Assembly: GCA_964450685.1 (NCBI GenBank)
Contig: CAYVDN010000006.1
Location: forward strand, 3,532-67,531
Direction of reading: 5' to 3'
Length of the DNA stretch: 64,000 bases
Origin: an uncultured Microthrixaceae bacterium
Lineage (GTDB): Bacteria > Actinomycetota > Acidimicrobiia > Acidimicrobiales > Microtrichaceae
Positions 46,322-55,824 of the stretch are shown one piece after another. The position numbers and the translations under genes were made by a program. Numbering within the stretch: position 1 is the first letter of the stretch; every line of letters starts with the position of its first letter. Under the pieces are notes generated by a model. That model saw nothing but the letters and a program-made list of their open reading frames with translations, was not told the DNA's origin and searched no databases.

Positions 46322-46834
46322 ATGAGCGTGGAACTGATCGACGACGACGAGCTGCGTGATGGCCAGTACTCCAAGGCGGTGGGCGAGCGGCTGCGTCACA
46401 TCAGGCGACAGAAGAGGCTGTCCCTGCAGGAGGTCGAGACGATCTCGGCCCACGAGTTCAAGGCGTCGGTGCTCGGCGCCTACGAGCGTGGGGAACGGGC
46501 CATCTCGGTGCCCCGGCTCCAGAGGCTTGCCCGCTTCTACAAGGTGCCCGTGGACCAGCTGCTGCCCGGGGACGACGTCGTCGAGGAGCTTCCGGCCCGA
46601 CGCGATCTCGATGGCGGAGCGAAGATCGACCTGACCCGACTCGAGGGTCTGAACGGAGCCGAGTCCGAGATGCTCTCGCGCTACCTGCGGATGATCCAGG
46701 TGCAGCGACAGGACTTCAACGGCCGTGTGCTCACGATCCGTCGGGACGACATGCGGGCCATCGCATGCATCCTCGGGGTCACCGAGGACGCAGCCGATCG
46801 CCGCCTCGACGAGATGGGCCTGCGCCTCGGCTGA
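46322..46834 (+). CDS. bldD: BldD-like XRE-family developmental regulator with a c-di-GMP binding signature
   Basis: Starts at ATG 46322 (170 aa; Streptomyces BldD is of similar length). The sequence is collinear with remembered S. coelicolor BldD. AVGERLRHIRRQKRLSLQEVE...SVLGAYERGERAISVPRLQRLARFYKVPVDQLLPG aligns with QLGAKLRAIRTQQGLSLHGVE...VVVGSYERGDRAVTVQRLAELADFYGVPVQELLPG. The C-terminal domain has RQD-FNGRVLTI-RRDD, which fits RXD-X8-RXXD. Confidence 0.8.
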   Translation: MSVELIDDDELRDGQYSKAVGERLRHIRRQKRLSLQEVETISAHEFKASVLGAYERGERAISVPRLQRLARFYKVPVDQLLPGDDVVEELPARRDLDGGAKIDLTRLEGLNGAESEMLSRYLRMIQVQRQDFNGRVLTIRRDDMRAIACILGVTEDAADRRLDEMGLRLG

Positions 46835-46896: not shown

Positions 46897-47811
46897 CTAC
46901 GGGAGCACGATGGTCTGACCGACGTGCAGCAGTGACGGGTCCCCGGGGTCGACCAGTCGATCGCGGTTCTCCTCGACGAGCCGGGCCCAGTAGGTCGCGA
47001 CAGGTTCCGCGTGGCCGCGTTCGGCTACGACGCGTTCGGCGATCGCCCAGAAATGCTCGCCGGGTTCGACCGAGTGCAGGGAAACAGCGGGCGCTGCTGC
47101 TGATGGGTAGGTGGCTACCCCGTCGGTTGATGCTGGGTCGTTGAACTCTGGACCGTTGAACGCTGGGTCATTGGGCACTGGGACAGTCGATGCCGGGTCG
47201 CTGGACAGATCCGGGGTGGATGGATTCGGGGCCGGCGCCCACGGGAGCATCGTTCGCGCAGACGTGGTTGTCGAGGACGTGGGGCTGTCGACCAGGGACT
47301 CGAGTGTGATCGTGCGTGGGTCTGTCGGATTCTCCACGGCTCCGACGCTCGGAATGCTCACCGATGCAGCGGCCACGCTCACAGCTGCTGCCGTCAACCA
47401 GCGGGGCGTCGCACGGCGGGCCAGCACAGCGACCCGACCGCTGTGACTACCTGCGCCAGGCATCGGGCCGTGGACCAGGCCAACCAGGAGATTCAGTCCC
47501 GCGACGATCGTCAAGTAGCCGAGCGTGGCCAACGCGACTACCACGAGCGTCGAACTCACGAGCCCGACAATGTCCCAGGTGGCAGTCGTGGATCCGGCGA
47601 AGCTCTGCCAGTCGAGCCATGGCGGGCGGTTGCCCCAGACCGCCGCCAGTCCGACCGACGAGATCAGCATCGTGGCCAACGCACGCCGTAGTTGGCGACG
47701 TCTCAGGGACCGGGGTGACATATCGGACCTGCGGCCCGGTACCGGTCTGTTCGTGGCGTGGTCCGATCCGAGGCTGGGTCGACGGTACGAGCGGTCCTCG
47801 ATGATGGTCAT
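46897..47811 (-). CDS. Polytopic membrane protein with C-terminal LysM peptidoglycan-binding domain (last gene of the Tad operon)
   Basis: ATG 47811 forms an ATGA overlap with the upstream stop (47808-47811). TM segments include LATMLISSVGLAAVWG and IVGLVSSTLVVVALATLGYLTIVAGLNLLVGLV. A Pro/Ser/Thr-rich linker is followed by the LysM-like HSVEPGEHFWAIAERVV...NRDRLVDPGDPSLLHVGQTIVLP. Confidence 0.65.
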   Translation of the reverse strand: MTIIEDRSYRRPSLGSDHATNRPVPGRRSDMSPRSLRRRQLRRALATMLISSVGLAAVWGNRPPWLDWQSFAGSTTATWDIVGLVSSTLVVVALATLGYLTIVAGLNLLVGLVHGPMPGAGSHSGRVAVLARRATPRWLTAAAVSVAAASVSIPSVGAVENPTDPRTITLESLVDSPTSSTTTSARTMLPWAPAPNPSTPDLSSDPASTVPVPNDPAFNGPEFNDPASTDGVATYPSAAAPAVSLHSVEPGEHFWAIAERVVAERGHAEPVATYWARLVEENRDRLVDPGDPSLLHVGQTIVLP

Positions 47812-49046
47812 GTCTGCTCCTTGGCAACTGGGGACCCTGCGGCGTCGAGCGGGCGGAGTCGAACACATCCGTCAACCTCGTCGACACCGAGCGAGGTCGC
47901 TCCGGGGTAGGTGCCGAGATATCGGGCTGTGGTAGTCGCCCCGGATCCAGGCCACTCGTCGAACGTGAACACCTCGGACGAGGAGGCTCTGAGGAGAACG
48001 ACCTGAGCCGGTCCCCGACAGGTGATCGGAGCGACGACGACATGGTCTCCTGGTTCTCCAGCACTGAAGCGATCGCTCCCGACCGTCACGATGTTGCCCG
48101 AGACGGAGACGTCGTCGGGGCAATCGTCACGGTCAAGGTCCGGGCCGGCACTTGCCCAGGGATTGGCGGTGGGCGAGTGGGCGCATGCCGGTCTGTCGTC
48201 GGACGCGAGTGGCGAAGGGCTGCTCGACTCCACCCGGCCACTGCTCTGGCCGGCGGCGGCCACCGCTCCCCAGGTCAGGCCGAGCACACCGACCCCGACG
48301 GCGGCACCCACCAGCCGGAGAGGTGTCCCACCGAGCGGCGATCGGCCGCCTGCCTTCGCCCCCTGGCCCGGACGAGACGTCGGGTCGCCGATCCGTGGCG
48401 GCGACATTCGTGAGCTCAGGTCAACTGCGAGCTCACGAAGGTCAGCCGCCAGGGCTTCGACTGATCGACAGCCCGCTTCCGGCGAGACCGAGTTCGTTCT
48501 TCCGAGGCCCCGGTGGTAACGACGCACGGCAGAGCGGTACACCCACGATGCCCTCGGACCCCACGTGTCGCCGCGGTGGCGCAGGACGTGCTCGATCAGA
48601 TCCACAAGCTGTTGGAGGTCGGTGAGGGTATCGGGTCCCTCGTCACCAGCGTTGCTGCAGCGAACCCTTGCCGAACCGAGCGAGCAGAGACGAACAGTTC
48701 CTTCCGCGGCGATGACCACGTGCTCAGAGCACAACGCACCATGGGTCCAGCCGGCTGCGTGCAGCTCCGCGACGGCGTCGGCTGTGTCGGCGAGAGCCGT
48801 GAGCAGCTCTGTAGGCGACCGCCCCTGCAGCTGTGATAGGTCGCGGTCGCCTGCGTCGACGGTGACGAGATCGGTCCTGTCATCGGACTCCCGCAACGCG
48901 ACGAGCTCCACCACTGGTAGTCCCCGCATGTGTTCGAGCAGTTCTGCCTCGCGACGCAGATGCTGACGAGAACCTCCTCGGGCACTCTTGGCCACGAGCG
49001 GTGTACCGCCGACGGTGAGCCGGTGGACCCGATTGGCCCCGGTCAT
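47808..49046 (-). CDS. Single-pass membrane protein: cytoplasmic kinase-fold domain with substituted catalytic residues (pseudokinase), plus an extracytoplasmic 4-Cys domain
   Basis: 412 aa with ATGA overlaps at both ends. It keeps a beta3-like Lys (PLVAKSA) and an alphaC-like Glu (REAELLEH). The catalytic loop reads LHAAGWTHGALCSEHVVI, where kinases have HxD....N. The DFG position reads LCSLGSA. TM segment: LRLVGAAVGVGVLGLTWGAVAAAG. Confidence 0.55.
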   Translation of the reverse strand: MTGANRVHRLTVGGTPLVAKSARGGSRQHLRREAELLEHMRGLPVVELVALRESDDRTDLVTVDAGDRDLSQLQGRSPTELLTALADTADAVAELHAAGWTHGALCSEHVVIAAEGTVRLCSLGSARVRCSNAGDEGPDTLTDLQQLVDLIEHVLRHRGDTWGPRASWVYRSAVRRYHRGLGRTNSVSPEAGCRSVEALAADLRELAVDLSSRMSPPRIGDPTSRPGQGAKAGGRSPLGGTPLRLVGAAVGVGVLGLTWGAVAAAGQSSGRVESSSPSPLASDDRPACAHSPTANPWASAGPDLDRDDCPDDVSVSGNIVTVGSDRFSAGEPGDHVVVAPITCRGPAQVVLLRASSSEVFTFDEWPGSGATTTARYLGTYPGATSLGVDEVDGCVRLRPLDAAGSPVAKEQT

Positions 49047-49513
49047 CGGTTGAGCCTGGCGGTAGCAGTGACGACGATCCGCTCGCTGTCCGCGCGACCT
49101 GGAACAGCGCGGAGCATCACGTGGTCGACCAGGAGCTCGATCGTGACAGTCACCGTCGAACCCTCGTCACCGACCCGCACGGTCGGTTCAGACACAAGAT
49201 CTCCGGGGAGGCTGACAGTGCTCAGGTGTGCATCGACCACGCGTCGTGCTCTGCCGGGGTCGATTGTCAGCCCGCCGCTCCGCTGGAGCTCCTCGGTGTC
49301 GATCATCGCCGCGGCATCGTCGGCGGCCGCGGACACCGTCCGATGGGCCGAACGGTGCGCACCGTGCAGGAGAGTCAGGTCGATCGCGATGGTGCCCAGG
49401 CAGATGAGGACGAGCATCATCGCCGGTACGAGCATCAACGCGCTCGCAGTCTCGCCTCCGTGTCGCTCAGTCCAGTGCGCAAGGCGTGGTCGCCGGGTCA
49501 TGGCTGGGTCCAC
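49043..49513 (-). CDS. TadE/TadG-like minor pilin / pilus assembly protein
   Basis: 156 aa. The N-terminus ERHGGETASALMLVPAMMLVLICLGTIAIDL has a TadE-type hydrophobic segment. GTG 49513 or ATG 49501 are possible starts. It overlaps the upstream gene by 47 or 35 nt. Confidence 0.6.
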   Translation of the reverse strand: MDPAMTRRPRLAHWTERHGGETASALMLVPAMMLVLICLGTIAIDLTLLHGAHRSAHRTVSAAADDAAAMIDTEELQRSGGLTIDPGRARRVVDAHLSTVSLPGDLVSEPTVRVGDEGSTVTVTIELLVDHVMLRAVPGRADSERIVVTATARLNR

Positions 49514-49985
49514 TGGTCATCTCCCTGTGTGGGTCGACGAGCTCCCGGTGCGTGACTCGCACAGGTCGGGTCCCGAGGTCGTCGAGGAATGGGAGGCGTG
49601 CAGCGGGAGCTTCTGCCTCGAGGGTGACGGTCGCCGGTTCACAGGGCCCGAACCGGTTCGGGTCGGGGGCTGTGAACCGGATGTCTGCCAGGCGAGTGCC
49701 ACGTCGCAGCAGGACCTCTGAAGCAGCTCGTTGTCCGGCTGATGCTGCCTCCCGGGGTGTAGAGGCTTCCGTGTAGCTGCGCATGTACTCGCGTGCCGCA
49801 GCGTCCATGGCGGCGCGGGTGTCGATGATCGACCAGATGTTCAGTACCGCTAGCGAGCCGGCGACCAGGATGAACAGGCCGAAGAGGATTCCCTCGGCGC
49901 CGCCGACGAAGCCGCCCTGACAGCGGCGGCGAGCTGATGGATGTGGTGCCATGTTGCGGCATCCGTCGCCGGCCGTCCCGTTCAC
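49467..49985 (-). CDS. TadE-like protein
   Basis: 172 aa with a GTGA overlap to the upstream stop (49982-49985). N-terminal hydrophobic segment: GGAEGILFGLFILVAGSLAVLNIWSIIDTRAAMDAAAREY. Confidence 0.5.
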   Translation of the reverse strand: MNGTAGDGCRNMAPHPSARRRCQGGFVGGAEGILFGLFILVAGSLAVLNIWSIIDTRAAMDAAAREYMRSYTEASTPREAASAGQRAASEVLLRRGTRLADIRFTAPDPNRFGPCEPATVTLEAEAPAARLPFLDDLGTRPVRVTHRELVDPHREMTSGPSHDPATTPCALD

Positions 49986-50422
49986 GGTCTCTCCACCCTG
50001 ACCGAGATGGTTCGATCCAGAGCACCGACGACCGGGCCTCCGTCGATCATCGCTGGTAGCAGCGAGACACCCCTGGATCGCAGCCGGAGGACGACACGGT
50101 CGTCGTCCAACGACTCGATGTCGAGTTGCACGTCGCCGCCGTGCTCGCCGAGCGCGTCCCTGGCATCATCGAGGACCTGTGCTGCCACAGTGGCGCGGTC
50201 ATAGCCGACAGGTGCCGTCGCGATGTCGCGTGCTGCGTCGTAGGCGACAGCATCGACGGTGCTTCGTGCCCACAGGCCGATGCAGATGTTCGACGCGAGC
50301 CCGACCGACGCCGCAACGGCGGCGACACCGAACACCGTGCTCAGGAGCCCTGACCCGCGCTCGTCGCGACGAGAACAGCGCCTGGGTACACCCCGCCGGG
50401 TCGAGCTCCGGGTGCCGTTCAT
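49982..50422 (-). CDS. TadE-like protein (actinobacterial ERGS-type N-terminus)
   Basis: Trimmed to ATG 50422, which forms an ATGA overlap with the flp-like stop. RDERGSGLLSTVFGVAAVAASVGLASNI resembles the DRGSA-type start of the Rv3654c-family TadE-like proteins. Confidence 0.6.
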   Translation of the reverse strand: MNGTRSSTRRGVPRRCSRRDERGSGLLSTVFGVAAVAASVGLASNICIGLWARSTVDAVAYDAARDIATAPVGYDRATVAAQVLDDARDALGEHGGDVQLDIESLDDDRVVLRLRSRGVSLLPAMIDGGPVVGALDRTISVRVERP

Positions 50423-50692: not shown

Positions 50693-51586
50693 TCACCCGC
50701 CGGCGACCTGCTCCATGGCGGAGGTGAAAGGGACGGCGAGGAAGATGAGGCCCGGTACGAGGGTCGCGACGGTGACCGGGATCCAGACCAGTTGTGAGCG
50801 CCGCTCGATGGCCTCGATCAAGTCGCGGTGTGCCGCAGCCCGGGCGCTCCGTGCTTCCTGGGACACGAGCTGGCCCAGGTCGCCCGCATCTCCGTGCAGT
50901 CGGAGGACAGAGACCAGGCGGCCGATTGCGTCGACTCCGCTGTCATCGGCCCATTCGGCAAGCGCTGCGTTGGTGCTCAGGCCCTGGCGGATCCTCCGGC
51001 TGACTGAACGCAGGTCCGATGCGATCGCCCCGTCGCCGCGTTGCGCCAGGCGGTTCAGCGCGCCCGGAACCGAGTATCCGGCCGACAGGAGCAGACCGAG
51101 CTGCTCGGTGACCACCGGAAGCTCGTCGCGTCGACGCGAGCGCCGCTCCTCGACCGCGGAGTCCAATCGGCGTTCCTCGATCAGCGCAGCCAGGACGGGC
51201 AGGCCGAGGATCGCGACGACTGCGACGACGGGCTTGGGGGTGACAGCGACGCTGAAAGCTGCTCCTGCGACGAACGTGACACCGGCGAACGTGGCCTGCC
51301 GCATCCGGAACGCGGCAGGGTCCAGGGACCAGCCAGCCTGGTCGAGCCTGGTGGACAGCAGCTGGCGCACGCCGAGCAAGGATGATGCTCGCTCCCCCCA
51401 TCGTTCGATTCCGGGAGCGAGGATGGCCCTCATCGAGTCCGAGGTGCGGTGTGTCGTCGCGTGGGGGCGGTGGCGCCGATATGGCGCCAGCCGATCCGCA
51501 AGACGCGAGCGTCGGAACCAGGGTGCCTCGCACAGGAGGAGGGTGATCCCGGCAGCGAGAAACGCCCATACGATAGGAAGGGTCAT
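50693..51586 (-). CDS. tadC: Type II secretion system F-family membrane protein (TadC-like)
   Basis: Trimmed to ATG 51586 (ATGA overlap with the tadB stop). It has 3-4 TM helices flanking a T2SSF-type cytoplasmic domain (DELPVVTEQLGLLLSAGYSVPGAL). Confidence 0.75.
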   Translation of the reverse strand: MTLPIVWAFLAAGITLLLCEAPWFRRSRLADRLAPYRRHRPHATTHRTSDSMRAILAPGIERWGERASSLLGVRQLLSTRLDQAGWSLDPAAFRMRQATFAGVTFVAGAAFSVAVTPKPVVAVVAILGLPVLAALIEERRLDSAVEERRSRRRDELPVVTEQLGLLLSAGYSVPGALNRLAQRGDGAIASDLRSVSRRIRQGLSTNAALAEWADDSGVDAIGRLVSVLRLHGDAGDLGQLVSQEARSARAAAHRDLIEAIERRSQLVWIPVTVATLVPGLIFLAVPFTSAMEQVAGG

Positions 51587-52449
51587 CGGTCGAACACCCG
51601 TCTCTGCTCGGGAAGTCGCATGACACGGCTTGCCCACCACCAGCACGCGGCCATGACGAGCAGCCCGACTGCCACCAGCGCCTGCCCGACCGGTGTCTGG
51701 TAGGCCGCCCTCCCGTCGCCGACGCTCAGCCCGGCGAGGGCCATTCCCGCCGGTACGAGCACCACGAACACCCTGGCGAAGCGCGCGCCGGACTGGCGTG
51801 CCTCGGCCTCCCTGCGTCCCGCCAGATCCTGACGACGATCGTCTGCGAGAGCGGCGAGGCGGGAGTCGAGGTCGCCGCCGACATCAGCGGCGACGAGCAG
51901 TGTCTCACAGGTTGCGTCAGCCGTCGGGTCCGCGAGTTGTCGCTTCAGTTCTGCGACGGTGCGAGGGAAGTCGGTCGTGAGCGACCACTCCCGTTGTGCC
52001 GAGATGAAGGCTCCGTGGAGCTCCTCGGGTCCTCGGAGCCCGACCTCGAGGAGCGCCTGGGGGATCGACCGGCCGGCCGACCCGGTCAGGACTCTGAGCT
52101 CCTCGATGAGGCGCGGCCAAGCGGCCCTCGCTGCGTGTCGTCTGGCGGTGCGTCGAGACCTCCAGACCGTCGCCGGGACGATCGCACCGGCTCCCGCAAC
52201 GAGTAGCGCGGGCAGGCCGGGGCCGAACACGACCAGAGCAGGGAGTGAGCTCGTAGCACCGACCAGAAGCGATGCGAGCAGGAACTGCACCGGGCTCACC
52301 CCTTCGAGCCCTGCCTGGTCCAGGATCAGTCGGGCGCGTCCTGCAGCCATCGAGCGCACATCGGTCTGATTCCAACGGGAACGGGGTTCACTCCAGACCA
52401 GCAGGTAGGTGCCTGTTGCTGCGAGGGCGGCGAGCAGGAGGCCGGTCAT
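51583..52449 (-). CDS. tadB: Type II secretion system F-family membrane protein (TadB-like)
   Basis: 288 aa with an ATGA overlap to the tadA stop. T2SSF pattern: WPRLIEELRVLTGSAGRSIPQAL, plus terminal TM helices. Confidence 0.75.
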   Translation of the reverse strand: MTGLLLAALAATGTYLLVWSEPRSRWNQTDVRSMAAGRARLILDQAGLEGVSPVQFLLASLLVGATSSLPALVVFGPGLPALLVAGAGAIVPATVWRSRRTARRHAARAAWPRLIEELRVLTGSAGRSIPQALLEVGLRGPEELHGAFISAQREWSLTTDFPRTVAELKRQLADPTADATCETLLVAADVGGDLDSRLAALADDRRQDLAGRREAEARQSGARFARVFVVLVPAGMALAGLSVGDGRAAYQTPVGQALVAVGLLVMAACWWWASRVMRLPEQRRVFDR

Positions 52450-53756
52450 GATCGTCCTACGGCTTCGCCGAGCAGGAGTCGTCCGTCGAAACCTGCTCTC
52501 TGGAGCCGTTCGAGCGCCCGCATCGGCATCAGTCCTGTCGGGCGCAGCGGTCCGTCGATCCGTGGACGCTCGAACAGCTCTGTCGTGGTGAACTGCACGG
52601 CGTCCGCGCCCGCAGTCAGGTCCTCCACCGCCAGTACCGAGGTGACGCGTGGACCGTTCGGACCTCGCTCGGAGTGGACGACCAGGTCGATCGCGTCGCT
52701 GACCAGGCTGTTGAGCGCGGCAACAGGCAATTGATGGGAATCGGAGAGCTGGGCGATGAACCTCAATCTCGTCAAGGCCTGCTTCGATGACGAAGCATGA
52801 ATGGTCGTGTAGCCGGTAACGCCGGACGACAGGGTCAACAGCAGTGGCATCGCTTCGCGGTCGCGGACCTCGCCGACTATCGCCACGTCCGGGGCCATTC
52901 GCAGGAATCCGGCGACCAGTCGTCGCAGATCGACCTCGGCGCGGTCGGCGCGGGCGGGCCGGGTCTGGAGGCTGGCGATGTTCGCGAGCGGTACGTCGGC
53001 TTCGAAGACCTCCTCGGCGATCACGACTCTCAGGGACGGTTCGAGTTCCGCTGCGCAGCAGGACAGCAGCGTCGTCTTGCCGGCTCCGGGTGCGCCGGCG
53101 AACACGATGCTCATGCGGGCCCGCACGCAGGCGACCAGGAAGGTGGCGGCCTGCGGGGAAAGCGTCTCTCGTCGCACGAGCTCGTCCAGCGAGCTGATTG
53201 CCACGCCGGTGAACTTGCGGATGTTGACCATCAGGTGATTCCCGCGGCTCAGGTCACCGTGCACGATGTGGAGCCGCGATCCGTCGTCGAGCTGTGCGTC
53301 CTGGAGTCCCTCCGTGGGGTCGAGCTTGCGATGTGACGAAGCAGCATCCTCGAGGAGCTTGGTCAGGGTCCTGGCCACGTGGTCGTCGTCGTGGAACACC
53401 TCGTGGTGGTAGCGGCTACCACCGGAGTGCCTGCGCACGAAGATCTCGGTGGGGGCGTTGATCATGATCTCCCACACGTCGTCGTCGTCGAGCAGGTCCG
53501 TCAACGGCCCGTACCGTGCGAGATTCCGGAACGCCCTTTCCGCGATCCCCTCGGGATCGTTCAACCCATCCCGGATGAGACCTCGGCGGTGATCTGCCTG
53601 GTGTTCGTCGATCACGTGGTCGATCAAGCGGCGAAGTCGTACCTGGCCCCCTGGCTCATCGACGTCGAGGAGCTCACGGGTGGCTCGGAGCTGCACCTCG
53701 TGCTCGACTCGCTGAAGCGGCGAAGGTGCGGACGGGGCGGTCGTGGTGGCCTTCAT
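52446..53756 (-). CDS. tadA: CpaF/TadA-type secretion ATPase
   Basis: Trimmed from the 622-aa track ORF to ATG 53756 (436 aa; ATGA overlap with the tadZ stop). Walker A is FAGAPGAGKTTLL, Walker B is RVVIAEEVFE, and it has IVGEVRDREA and TGYTTIHASS. The discarded N-terminal extension is Arg/Pro-rich antisense sequence of tadZ. Confidence 0.9.
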   Translation of the reverse strand: MKATTTAPSAPSPLQRVEHEVQLRATRELLDVDEPGGQVRLRRLIDHVIDEHQADHRRGLIRDGLNDPEGIAERAFRNLARYGPLTDLLDDDDVWEIMINAPTEIFVRRHSGGSRYHHEVFHDDDHVARTLTKLLEDAASSHRKLDPTEGLQDAQLDDGSRLHIVHGDLSRGNHLMVNIRKFTGVAISSLDELVRRETLSPQAATFLVACVRARMSIVFAGAPGAGKTTLLSCCAAELEPSLRVVIAEEVFEADVPLANIASLQTRPARADRAEVDLRRLVAGFLRMAPDVAIVGEVRDREAMPLLLTLSSGVTGYTTIHASSSKQALTRLRFIAQLSDSHQLPVAALNSLVSDAIDLVVHSERGPNGPRVTSVLAVEDLTAGADAVQFTTTELFERPRIDGPLRPTGLMPMRALERLQRAGFDGRLLLGEAVGRS

Positions 53757-55111
53757 GCGACGTCCCTCCTGTTGCGCGCGAAGAGCTGCACCCGGTCGTC
53801 GATGTCGGTGCCGAGCTCTCCCGGACGGACCCGCTCGGCGACCTCGCCGCCCTGCGTCGGTCGAGGGGGGAGCGAGTCGGCGAGAGCGAGCACGTGACGC
53901 CCGAGAGGATCGACGAGGCACGAAGGCAACGGCGCTACTCGGTCGTGGACCTCGTCCATGGCTCGAGCCCGGCTCAGCATGACCGGGTCGGCGATGTCGG
54001 CGTGACGTTCGCTGTCGAACAGCTTCGACACCTGGCGGCGCAGCAGTGTTCGTCGAGAGGCCGAGCGTGGCGAGCTCGAGATCACGGGTACGAGCCGGTG
54101 TGCAGGTACCCCGGCGTCGAGCAGGTCCTCTGTGAGAGTGGTGAGTCCGTGCAGGCCGTGAAGGTCGCCGCGGGCGACGACGAGAACCAGGTGGGCGCGG
54201 TCGACTGCTGCGAGGTTCACGGAGTGGCGGTCCTCCACGTCCGATGATCCAGTGTCCGCCTGATTGTCGAGCTCTGCGTCGAAGTCGACGATCACCGTGT
54301 CGAACGCGCGGCACATGGCATCAAGTGCTGCATCCGCGGACCTGCGTCGGAGGGTCACCCAGTCGGAGATCCGGCGGCGCCCCAGCAGCAGCGAGTAGTG
54401 ACGGGTCGGAACCGGGAAGGTGATTCTCCTCACCTCGTCGGGATCGAGCCTGTCGGAGCGATGTGACTCCACGAGCTCGGGAAGCCCGGGGACTACGTCG
54501 CCGATGTGGTGATACATCGCAAGTGACCCGCGTGCGCAGCCGTCGACCAGCGCGACGGTCCCCCTGCTGGTCGATTCAGCAGGTTCGTCCGGTGCGTATC
54601 GCCACCGGGTGGTTGCAGCGGCTTGGGCCAGGGCCATCGCTGCGGAGCTCGCCCCGCCGCCGCCCGGGCCCGTCACCGCCACGAGCAGGCCCTCACCGCG
54701 CACGGACTCACTCAGGACTGATCGGCCCGGGCGGCGGGCAGGTCCGACCGGACGTGCGTGGCGCTTCAGGGCCTCGACGAGCGTCGCGGGGTCCAGACGG
54801 TCGTCGATCACCGCCGCACAGCCAAGAGCTTCCCAGTCGCGGTGAACGGATCCGTCCGTGACCACCAGGCTGGGGGTGCCGGCACCGGCGGCGGCATCTA
54901 TGAGGTCGCGGTCGATCCCGGGGCCCCTCGCGTCGAGCAGCAGAGCGGAGACACGGCGGCCTGTGCCGAGCACAGCAGCAGCTTCGGTGGCGGTCAGACA
55001 GCTCACGAACTCGACGGGAGCAGCACCGTCGGTCGACCAGCGCGCCAGGTCGGCCACCCACCGTGCCCGAGCCCTGGTAACCCCGACGACGACGAACCGG
55101 TCGGAGCTCAT
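53753..55111 (-). CDS. tadZ: CpaE/TadZ-like (Ssd-like) ParA/MinD-fold protein with receiver-like N-domain and lysine-less P-loop
   Basis: 452 aa. The N-terminal flavodoxin-like region reads FVVVGV...SALLLDARGPGIDRDLI. The central LLVAVTGPGGGGASSAAMALA sits where MinD/ParA have GxxGxGK(S/T). ATGA overlaps at both ends. Confidence 0.7.
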   Translation of the reverse strand: MSSDRFVVVGVTRARARWVADLARWSTDGAAPVEFVSCLTATEAAAVLGTGRRVSALLLDARGPGIDRDLIDAAAGAGTPSLVVTDGSVHRDWEALGCAAVIDDRLDPATLVEALKRHARPVGPARRPGRSVLSESVRGEGLLVAVTGPGGGGASSAAMALAQAAATTRWRYAPDEPAESTSRGTVALVDGCARGSLAMYHHIGDVVPGLPELVESHRSDRLDPDEVRRITFPVPTRHYSLLLGRRRISDWVTLRRRSADAALDAMCRAFDTVIVDFDAELDNQADTGSSDVEDRHSVNLAAVDRAHLVLVVARGDLHGLHGLTTLTEDLLDAGVPAHRLVPVISSSPRSASRRTLLRRQVSKLFDSERHADIADPVMLSRARAMDEVHDRVAPLPSCLVDPLGRHVLALADSLPPRPTQGGEVAERVRPGELGTDIDDRVQLFARNRRDVA

Positions 55112-55824
55112 CGCCCGAGCTCCGACTCGTTCGGCCCGGGAGCAGGGAGTACCAGAGTCACGTCAGTACGTACCGCGGCGTCGACGATCGCTTCGGCAGT
55201 CGCCACGTCAGCAACTCCAACTCGGACCCGAATGCCTCCGTCCACCCCGATGGCGTCGTCGTCATCGCCCTGGACGGAGGTGACCAGCACCCCGGTCGCC
55301 ACCGTCGAAGTGCCGGTCGAGTCAGGGTCGGTCGAGAGCACGGTGACTCGGTCACCTGCCTCCAGGGCCCCGTGCATCGCTGCGGCAGGGGGCAGGTCCA
55401 GCACCAATTCGTTGGTCGCATCCGGACCGAACCGACCGGACTCGAACACGTCGCCGTCGCGGACCAGGTCCATCGGGCGCAGCGCGACGCGGGTGGTGCG
55501 GCCGATCAGGTCATCGGCATCGGCCTTGTCGATTGTGTTCAGATCGTCCGGTATCTCCGCTGTGACGGTTCCGAGATCAGCTGCGCTCAGAGGCGAACCG
55601 GCCGGAACCTCTCGAACTGCGACCACATAGGAAGTGGATGGTGGAGCAGTCGCCGCGCGCTGGGAGACGAGAACACCCACCGCGGCAGTGGCGACAAGAG
55701 CCCCTCCGAGAACGGCTCGACTCGACGGGCGCCTCGAGACGCCTGACCGGCGTGACCGCGCCCGTGACGAAATCGGCCCGCCCGGGCCGGGGTGGTCGAT
55801 CTGTCGGTCGGCTGTCTCTGCCAC
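55108..55824 (-). CDS. cpaB: SAF-domain Flp pilus assembly protein CpaB/RcpC-like (first gene of the operon)
   Basis: 238 aa with a GTG start. N-terminal TM is VLGGALVATAAVGVLV. The SAF-like segment is YVVAVREVPAGSPLSAADL. The CpaB-like C-terminus reads GDRVTVLST...VRVRVGVADVATAEAIV. Confidence 0.65.
   Translation of the reverse strand: MAETADRQIDHPGPGGPISSRARSRRSGVSRRPSSRAVLGGALVATAAVGVLVSQRAATAPPSTSYVVAVREVPAGSPLSAADLGTVTAEIPDDLNTIDKADADDLIGRTTRVALRPMDLVRDGDVFESGRFGPDATNELVLDLPPAAAMHGALEAGDRVTVLSTDPDSTGTSTVATGVLVTSVQGDDDDAIGVDGGIRVRVGVADVATAEAIVDAAVRTDVTLVLPAPGPNESELGR

Follow-up and report, generated by a model that had tools for sequence, protein, structure and literature searches.

Single-pass membrane pseudokinases acting as scaffolds of bacterial envelope machines are a known kind of protein, exemplified by EssB/YukC of the type VIIb secretion system (T7SSb) of Firmicutes (PMC12599244, PMC9600267, PMC3526858; PDB 6Z0F). 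An atlas and review of bacterial Ser/Thr kinases (STKs) describes seven pseudokinase families, of which ActPs1, ActPs2, ActPs3, GLW and DLHK all lack the VAIK lysine, while in CP1 and DYD this residue is absent only in part of the members (bioRxiv 10.1101/2025.01.12.632604). Bacterial pseudokinases have received almost no experimental study, and it is poorly understood how type IV filaments, Tad pili among them, traverse the thick walls of single-membrane bacteria and are anchored there. Here, we analyzed a 64,000-nt stretch of DNA (hereafter, the window) from an uncultured Microthrixaceae bacterium of the order Acidimicrobiales (contig CAYVDN010000006.1, assembly GCA_964450685.1), focusing on the product of the minus-strand open reading frame (ORF) 47808-49046, henceforth the window protein. 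A preliminary description had regarded this product as a transmembrane pseudokinase embedded in a pilus operon, that is, a scaffold or allosteric sensor rather than an enzyme. The ORF listing returned the gene exactly as described, with 412 codons for amino acids, and we judge the interpretation to be supported, since fold, substitutions, membrane segment, Cys-containing outer domain and operon all agree with it. The window protein belongs to a large, well-defined and previously unnamed family with a clear origin in active kinases and a fixed LysM partner, and members of this family recur behind the Tad genes, as part of the operon tail, in genomes from across the order.

Kinase fold and substituted catalytic positions

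The AlphaFold2 (AF2) model, computed from a 29-sequence alignment, reached predicted local distance difference test (pLDDT) scores >90 over residues ~10-220. Its elements follow each other as strand-strand-helix-strand-strand-helix, short strands and three helices, accommodating a β2-β3 hairpin, αC, β4-β5, αE, remnants of the catalytic loop and of DFG, αF, αH and αI. Foldseek comparison with the PDB yielded at least 2000 matches, of which 1980 reached E<=0.001 (best 1.3e-8, probability 1.00). The 50 best matches listed are protein kinases throughout, headed by Lck, IRAK4, PKR and CDK2 (E~1e-8), and Mycobacterium tuberculosis PknB (5u94) is also among the matches. Structure prediction and structural search thus recovered the kinase fold that had been proposed.

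Profile matches remained below the curated thresholds, with 17.2 bits for Pfam Pkinase (PF00069; cut-off 31.7), 14.8 for Pfam Kdo (cut-off 21.3) and 13 for arch_bud32 (cut-off 125). The sub-threshold Pfam matches to APH, Pkinase, PK_Tyr_Ser-Thr and Kdo nonetheless agree, every one of them spanning residues 5-128; further matches of this strength in NCBIfam and Pfam were to APH(3'), MAD6 kinase and Bud32, and the sub-threshold Pfam matches recurred in the 29 homologues (Kdo in 27, Pkinase in 17 and APH in 14). The fact that all Pfam and NCBIfam kinase matches fall short of their thresholds would suit a spurious resemblance, or a decaying and functionless remnant. We consider this extremely improbable in the face of a confident model matching ~2000 solved kinases, an alignment collinear with a real STK, and hundreds of diverged but intact members with invariant motifs and a conserved operon position. 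Indeed, the resemblance to kinases is well beyond chance.

Two alignments fixed the residue correspondence. phmmer against PDB sequences paired HGALCSEH with HRDLAARN and LCSLGSA with VADFGLA, and BLASTP against a canonical STK from outside the order (L014) ran collinearly over both domains, pairing VAKS with VAVK, RREAE with RREAE, THGALCSEH with LHRDVTPGN and LCSLGSA with LGDFGLA. Both evidenced replacement of the HRD Asp by Ala104, of the catalytic-loop Asn by His109 and of the DFG Asp by Ser122, precisely the Ala-for-Asp, His-for-Asn and Ser-for-Asp changes of the preliminary description, and no alignment placed an intact Asp/Asn/Asp set elsewhere in the protein. As the classical 'VAIK' Lys and the αC Glu are retained, the changes concern the Asp of HRD, the Asn of the catalytic loop and the Asp of DFG, not the K/D/D triad of the pseudokinase literature. 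All the motifs on which that description had drawn are present, namely PLVAKSA (with K20), REAELLEH (E33), DLVTVDAG, LCSLGSA (C121-S122) and the catalytic loop LHAAGWTHGALCSEHVVI, which reads H96...H102-G-A104...H109; in the alignment, K20 pairs with VAVK and E33 with RREAE of the real STK, in keeping with their assignment as β3-like Lys and αC-like Glu.

The degeneration extends beyond single residues. The window protein begins five residues before the strand that aligns to β2 of the real STK, and between its start codon and the stop upstream of it the ORF has no other start codon. Since the first strand corresponds to β2 and the ORF is not extendable upstream, β1 and the Gly-rich loop are truly missing. 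With respect to the real STK, ~18 residues of the activation loop and APE are also missing, leaving ~14 residues between the DFG remnant and αF, and αG is absent. Retained, on the other hand, are K20 (β3 Lys), E33 (αC Glu), H102 (HRD His), D143 (αF Asp), the last of these without variation among close family members, and an αI-like helix.

We then scored these positions in a MAFFT alignment of 167 family representatives sharing <=50% identity, which revealed that the substitutions are family-wide rather than confined to the window protein. Position 104 is Ala in 83 representatives, Arg in 42, Ser in 15, Gly in nine and Asp in six; position 122 is Ser in 126, Gly in 38 and Asp in one; and Asn never occupies position 109 (0/167). 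Conversely, H102 is present in all 167, G99 and H109 in 166 each, H96 in 165, C121 in 158, E33 in 157, and K20 and G103 in 155 each, whereas G24, R27 and R31 do not vary within the close family. The resulting signature, LHxxG[W/I/V]xHG[A/R] ... H and LC[S/G][L/F]G, is specific to the family. Conservation of the substituted states across the 167 representatives identifies a pseudokinase family under selection and not a decaying gene, the pattern indicating strong purifying selection on the 'dead' states. Two species of one genus (L027 and L028, from genomes G528 and G576) read HRDIGPSH in one case and HRSIRPAN in the other, with CGFS at the DFG site in both.

The retention of K20, E33, H102, H109 and C121 in 155-167 of the 167 representatives, along with the invariance of G24, R27 and R31 in the close family, could alternatively mean that the Lys-Glu pair and His109/Cys121, with Arg27/Arg31, make up a site for ligand binding or for non-canonical catalysis. 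The domain would then work as a nucleotide-, metal- or redox-controlled switch, akin to cation-independent nucleotide-binding pseudokinases or to repurposed kinases of the SelO or SidJ type, and this would be compatible with either of the functional contexts considered below. Repurposed bacterial pseudokinases do exist (PMC12599244). We regard such a switch as rather improbable here, because there is no β1 or Gly-rich loop to serve as nucleotide clamp, all three metal-binding or catalytic carboxylate/amide residues are gone, and positions 104 and 109 vary within a single genus (HRD..H versus HRS..N, as noted above). Moreover, the HRD His and the Lys-Glu pair, like the residue that precedes DFG, have structural roles in the kinase fold as well. 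A Cys/His metal site formed by H102, C106, H109 and C121 is given little probability within this alternative, as C106 is Cys in only 49/167 representatives and hence no such cluster exists family-wide. Instead, with β1, the Gly-rich loop and the activation loop lost, as well as the catalytic Asp and the Asn and Asp that bind Mg, the domain is most likely a rigid docking or dimerisation module, which would be non-enzymatic.

The extracytoplasmic domain and its active-kinase relatives

A Kyte-Doolittle scan uncovered a sole hydrophobic window in the protein, at residues 243-266 (maximum 1.89), matching the single transmembrane helix that had been anticipated. It is preceded by a juxtamembrane linker (~residues 215-242) that AF2 renders disordered (pLDDT <50), and the conserved Cys pairs are confined to the C-terminal part of the protein. 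These signals point to a single-pass protein with N-in/C-out topology. Residues 267-412 comprise a Ser/Pro-rich spacer followed by a nine-stranded all-β domain, which modeled alone at pLDDT 82.9 overall and ~90 over the β core. The four cysteines expected in this outer domain were located as C288, C309, C343 and C394; the latter two are widely conserved (160/167 and 153/167 representatives), C309 and C288 being Cys in 104 and 75, respectively. Four cysteines occur in 98/167 members and two in 59/167, a distribution that fits one or two putative disulfides.

Foldseek with the ectodomain alone returned no significant PDB match (best E 0.14), although the weak matches are nearly all β-propellers (DDB1, LGI1-EPTP, GH93, RSL lectin and PQQ dehydrogenases). 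Similarly, a Pfam scan of the window ectodomain gave no match, and FG-GAP was hit in only two of the 29 homologues, below threshold (E 0.039). The ectodomain consensus DxDGDGC, GDWDCDG and LLRPxTGEVFxF resembles FG-GAP repeats, the second motif being degenerate in the window protein (PITCRG), so that the FG-GAP/β-propeller likeness is suggested at the motif level only.

The origin of the family became apparent from three proteins of Actinomycetota from other classes (L012, L013 and L014), all outside the order, in which the same Cys-containing ectodomain follows a Pfam-positive kinase domain. They share with the window protein the succession of kinase domain, linker, transmembrane helix and Cys-containing FG-GAP-like ectodomain, including the GDW[D/N]CDG...RPxTG motifs, but are 100-150 residues longer. 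L014 (G393) is fully canonical (Pkinase E 7e-35), with GAGAMG, VAVK, RREAE, HRDVTPGN and DFG, and thus possesses the Gly-rich loop, HRD...N, DFG and activation loop that the window protein lacks. The common ectodomain and the collinear alignment over both domains argue for descent from Hanks-type receptor Ser/Thr kinases. As judged from these alignments, the sharing of an ectodomain between pseudokinase and active kinases, which is new here, fixes both the residue mapping and the origin. As for the other two proteins, HGH replaces HRD in L012 (G164), which keeps Asn and DFG, and DLD replaces DFG in L013 (G327); the three look like a graded series towards the pseudokinase.

The preliminary description had assigned the N-terminal part to a protein-kinase/Kdo-kinase topology. 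The kinase fold stands, and as its origin Hanks-type receptor Ser/Thr kinases are favored over Kdo-type kinases. A Bud32/RIO/Kdo-type 'HGD' ancestry was hinted at by the HGA motif, by the Kdo matches in 27/29 homologues and by one JGI 'Bud32' label; we set it aside in view of the collinear two-domain alignment with Hanks receptor kinases having the same ectodomain. Family variants with a long linker carry HGRLxPxH, LCG[LF] and RPTARxLA, reminiscent of Hanks HRDLKPxN and RPSAxEL.

Regarding the size of the family, a word-indexed search found 29 homologues in Microthrixaceae and other metagenomic bins, labelled 'hypothetical' or once 'Bud32', and a profile search of 1.84 billion representatives extended this to 3321 proteins (E<=1e-3), with 498 representative clusters passing E<=1e-30. 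The genome that harbors the window also encodes a 798-aa multi-pass membrane protein (L007, contig C8:40984-44295 of G000, ORF 325-2721 on the minus strand) with a C-terminal LPG_synthase_TM domain (Pfam E 1e-28). An internal kinase-like segment of this protein matches the window pseudokinase along 110 residues with 38% identity (E 4e-10) and carries the substitutions HGAL...H and LSGLGSA, which indicates that the dead-kinase module has been reused in a second membrane context.

Linkage to the tad genes

The pseudokinase gene is tightly packed within a minus-strand operon (Table 1). It shares an ATGA with either neighbor and is thus translationally coupled to both: at 49043-49046, its start codon overlaps the TGA of the TadE-like gene before it, and at 47808-47811 its own TGA overlaps the start codon of the LysM gene, which has the Shine-Dalgarno sequence AAGGAG upstream. 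The genes run in the order cpaB-like (SAF), tadZ-like, tadA (T2SSE), tadB and tadC (T2SSF), flp-like, three tadE-like, the pseudokinase and a multi-pass LysM-like gene. These overlaps, and the recurrence of the arrangement in 53 genomes of 31 GTDB families, bear out the claim that the gene is embedded in a pilus operon.

We assessed this linkage in a sample of 201 genomes of the order, scoring the pseudokinase family at E<=1e-8 and orthologous TadA at E<=1e-60. The family was present in 105 genomes and TadA in 100; both occurred in 78, the pseudokinase only in 27, TadA only in 22 and neither in 74, which corresponds to an odds ratio of 9.7, uncorrected for phylogeny. In 53 of the 78 genomes with both, the pseudokinase gene and tadA lie <=12 kb apart, usually 4-5 kb. 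Among the remaining 25, the two are far apart on one contig in three and on different contigs in 22, many of these in fragmented bins. Gene order is identical in five loci from close relatives (L001-L005), the pseudokinase gene usually occupies the second-to-last position of the Tad operon, and the LysM gene adjoins it in ~20/25 loci. Rearranged loci keep this association: in L024 (G567:C11:19700-38800), the tad operon is split by the pseudokinase-LysM pair, which lies on the other strand between tadA and tadZ, and in L031 and L032 the pair adjoins tad genes with no bldD/dnaJ block nearby.

The reading that we favor, with somewhat better than even confidence, is that the pseudokinase is a non-catalytic scaffold or sensor and that it joins its LysM partner in a transmembrane sub-complex accessory to the Tad pilus machine. 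The cytoplasmic domain derives from Hanks-type receptor Ser/Thr kinases, having kept the structural core and lost the elements of phosphotransfer, while a disulfide-stabilised FG-GAP-like β module would sit in the cell-wall zone. The pseudokinase and the multi-pass LysM protein, of peptidoglycan-binding type, would be made together from the tail of the Tad/Flp operon. Outside the membrane, the two may contact the wall, the pseudopilins or one another; inside, cytoplasmic Tad parts (TadZ/TadA) may be recruited or positioned by the dead kinase domain, so that the sub-complex would anchor, align or regulate the single-membrane Tad machine of Acidimicrobiales, as EssB/YukC does in T7SSb.

Several observations weigh against this assignment to the pilus. 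The strict conservation of K20, E33, H109 and C121 exceeds the obvious needs of a pure scaffold. Six loci (L018, L019, L021-L023 and L029) keep the pair by bldD-rsmE-dnaJ-hrcA, with tadA elsewhere or absent, and part of the tad adjacency could be inherited synteny. The order sample contains the 27 genomes with the pseudokinase and no orthologous TadA, as well as the 22 with the reverse situation. Five genomes that were checked (G528, G576, G471, G506 and G517) hold only ATPase paralogues of 31-38% identity, yet keep the pseudokinase gene, which was called intact in the first four and matched over the ectodomain part only in G517. Full-length members of the family were not found outside the order in a sample of 401 genomes of the phylum; being confined to one order in the genomes searched, the pseudokinase is not a general Tad part. 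In three loci (L027, L028 and L037), it stands alone, the former two without cognate Tad operon and LysM neighbor. Obligatory tad adjacency is thus rejected by Tad-less loci and genomes, and the pilus-operon link put forward in the preliminary description is to be read as frequent but not obligatory.

These exceptions bring up the possibility that the pseudokinase, alone or with the LysM protein, is a general envelope sensor or scaffold. It could, for instance, serve active Ser/Thr kinases and FHA proteins as a substrate and docking site in the manner of the MviN pseudokinase domain; it would take no part in pilus assembly and would owe its place mostly to inherited gene order by bldD-rsmE-dnaJ-hrcA. 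Such a role would explain why the gene is retained in genomes without a cognate Tad operon and stays by bldD/dnaJ/hrcA where the tad genes lie elsewhere. It would also suit an ectodomain that is the sensor module of active receptor kinases (the three cases were not seen at Tad loci, their neighborhoods not having been examined), and the paralogous HGAL...LGSA kinase-like domain in an unrelated membrane protein of the same genome. We consider it possible but unlikely, given the translational coupling to the tadE-like genes in the window, the adjacency to tadA in 53 genomes of 31 families, the strong association between the presence of the gene and that of TadA, and the rearranged loci L024, L031 and L032, which keep the gene with tad and not with bldD. 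No FHA or kinase genes were seen in the operon in the ORF and Pfam listing, which also speaks against this role.

A bolder version of the Tad-accessory reading can be put forward tentatively, although we doubt that it holds in full. The pair would be a lineage-specific, essential wall-spanning module in which partially propeller-like ectodomains oligomerise around the pilus or next to it within the peptidoglycan, tethered by LysM, and the kinase domain relays their state to TadZ/TadA as an assembly checkpoint. To our knowledge, no type IV filament system has so far been reported to use a pseudokinase-based assembly checkpoint.

As for the neighboring genes, the order of the TadE-like genes is conserved in related loci, and the Flp-like prepilin shares 43-100% identity with those of related Tad loci having one. 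The BldD-like regulator is kept at the operon end in most related loci (53-95% identity), and rsmE, dnaJ and hrcA lie beyond it. Some of the Tad components are very divergent from curated models: the tadZ-like protein gave no Pfam match of the ParA/CpaE type, and the Flp-like prepilin gave only weak TrbC/VirB2 and DUF matches. The longest-ORF call for tadA (52446-54314, minus strand) includes a 186-residue Arg/Pro-rich N-terminal extension overlapping tadZ; translation almost certainly begins at the ATG at 53756 (MKATTT...), itself overlapping the stop codon of tadZ. Within one genus, the Tad operon appears to be decaying in two genomes, G517 (L034) and G457 (L036). TadA is absent from G517, with tadE-like remnants alone left, and fragmented in G457, where the pseudokinase was matched over the ectodomain part only, with one in-frame TGA; tadA is intact in G566, a third species of this genus.

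Table 1. Features of the pseudokinase gene and of the surrounding tad locus, in window coordinates
Feature	Position	Strand	Basis
Whole coding sequence, single-pass membrane pseudokinase, 412 aa	47808..49046	-	ORF, 29 homologues and profile search
Cytoplasmic pseudokinase domain, residues 1-215	48402..49046	-	AF2, Foldseek, STK alignment
Retained β3 lysine K20	48987..48989	-	Conservation and alignment to VAVK Lys of real STK
Catalytic-loop remnant, residues 96-109, H-AAGWT-H-G-A-LCSE-H	48720..48761	-	Alignments, family counts
DFG remnant C121-S122-L123-G124 (Asp to Ser)	48675..48686	-	Alignments, family counts
Single transmembrane helix, residues 243-266	48249..48320	-	Kyte-Doolittle
Extracytoplasmic part, residues 267-412	47811..48248	-	AF2, Cys statistics
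LysM partner gene, multi-pass membrane protein, C-terminal LysM-like domain	46897..47811	-	Pfam LysM E 0.005, sub-threshold; hydrophobic segments
Three TadE-like (pseudopilin-like) genes, 49982-50422, 49467-49985 and 49043-49513	49043..50422	-	Weak Pfam Tad match
Flp-like prepilin gene, 79 aa	50419..50658	-	ORF
tadC	50693-51586	-	Pfam T2SSF
tadB	51583-52449	-	Pfam T2SSF
tadA/cpaF	52446-53756	-	Pfam T2SSE
tadZ-like	53753-55111	-	ORF
cpaB/rcpC-like SAF protein	55108-55824	-	Pfam SAF
BldD-like regulator (HTH_31 and BldD-like_C, E 3e-17), convergent to operon end	46322-46834	+	

Comparison with known systems

We next compared the family with the pseudokinases and Tad loci described so far. Retention of the VAIK Lys in 155/167 representatives differs from the family-wide loss that defines ActPs1, ActPs2, ActPs3, GLW and DLHK, and CP1 and DYD differ in taxonomy, topology or motifs. 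The family is thus none of the seven described, as it keeps this Lys and scores below the Pfam Pkinase threshold on which the atlas rests. Its closest counterparts there are ActPs1, ActPs2 and ActPs3 (including the MviN pseudokinase domain, PDB 3UQC), likewise Actinobacterial, membrane-associated and Hanks-derived, with both the HRD and DFG aspartates lost. Even the deletions find parallels, in the activation loop of ActPs3 and the G helix of ActPs1, and ActPs1 members often carry a C-terminal β-propeller-type (PQQ_2) domain. Unlike ActPs1-3, the family has kept not only the Lys but also the αC Glu (157/167), and the published description of ActPs1-3 mentions no pilus context. A profile search of the PDB did not detect MviN.

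As regards the operon, its secretin-less core of tadZ, tadA, tadB, tadC, flp and tadE/F-like pseudopilins is common to M. tuberculosis Rv3654c-Rv3660c, Micrococcus luteus and Bifidobacterium breve tad2003. We know of no pseudokinase or LysM membrane protein described as an operon member in those Tad loci, and the literature searched yielded no pseudokinase in Tad or type IV pilus systems and nothing relevant on Tad pili in Acidimicrobiia. Hence, while membrane pseudokinase scaffolds are a known kind, the family, its motif signature and its link to a type IV filament operon were not encountered in that literature; equally new are the order-wide presence and adjacency counts, the exclusion from the described pseudokinase families and the Tad-less cases that limit the pilus reading.

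The closest architectural parallel is EssB/YukC. Both proteins consist of an N-terminal cytoplasmic kinase-fold domain, one transmembrane helix and an extracytoplasmic C-terminal domain; in both, the Gly-rich loop has degenerated, the activation loop is shorter and catalytic residues have been replaced; and both are encoded within the operon of an envelope-spanning export machine. On the other hand, EssB has lost the β3 Lys (LDMR) that the window protein keeps, and machine (T7SSb versus type IVc/Tad pilus), ectodomain and phylum differ, the role of the window protein being proposed from its context. Searching the PDB with the family profile did not detect EssB/YukC, but only MNK1 at E~0.009. 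The lack of detectable sequence homology and the Tad, rather than T7SSb, operon place the window protein outside the EssB/YukC family, the architecture alone being alike. Should the protein prove to be a part of the pilus, it would follow EssB/YukC as the second dead-kinase scaffold of an envelope machine, with no predecessor among type IV filaments; should it turn out to be an envelope sensor independent of the pilus, it would still found an eighth bacterial pseudokinase family, with the unusual signature of Lys and Glu kept and Asp, Asn and Asp lost.

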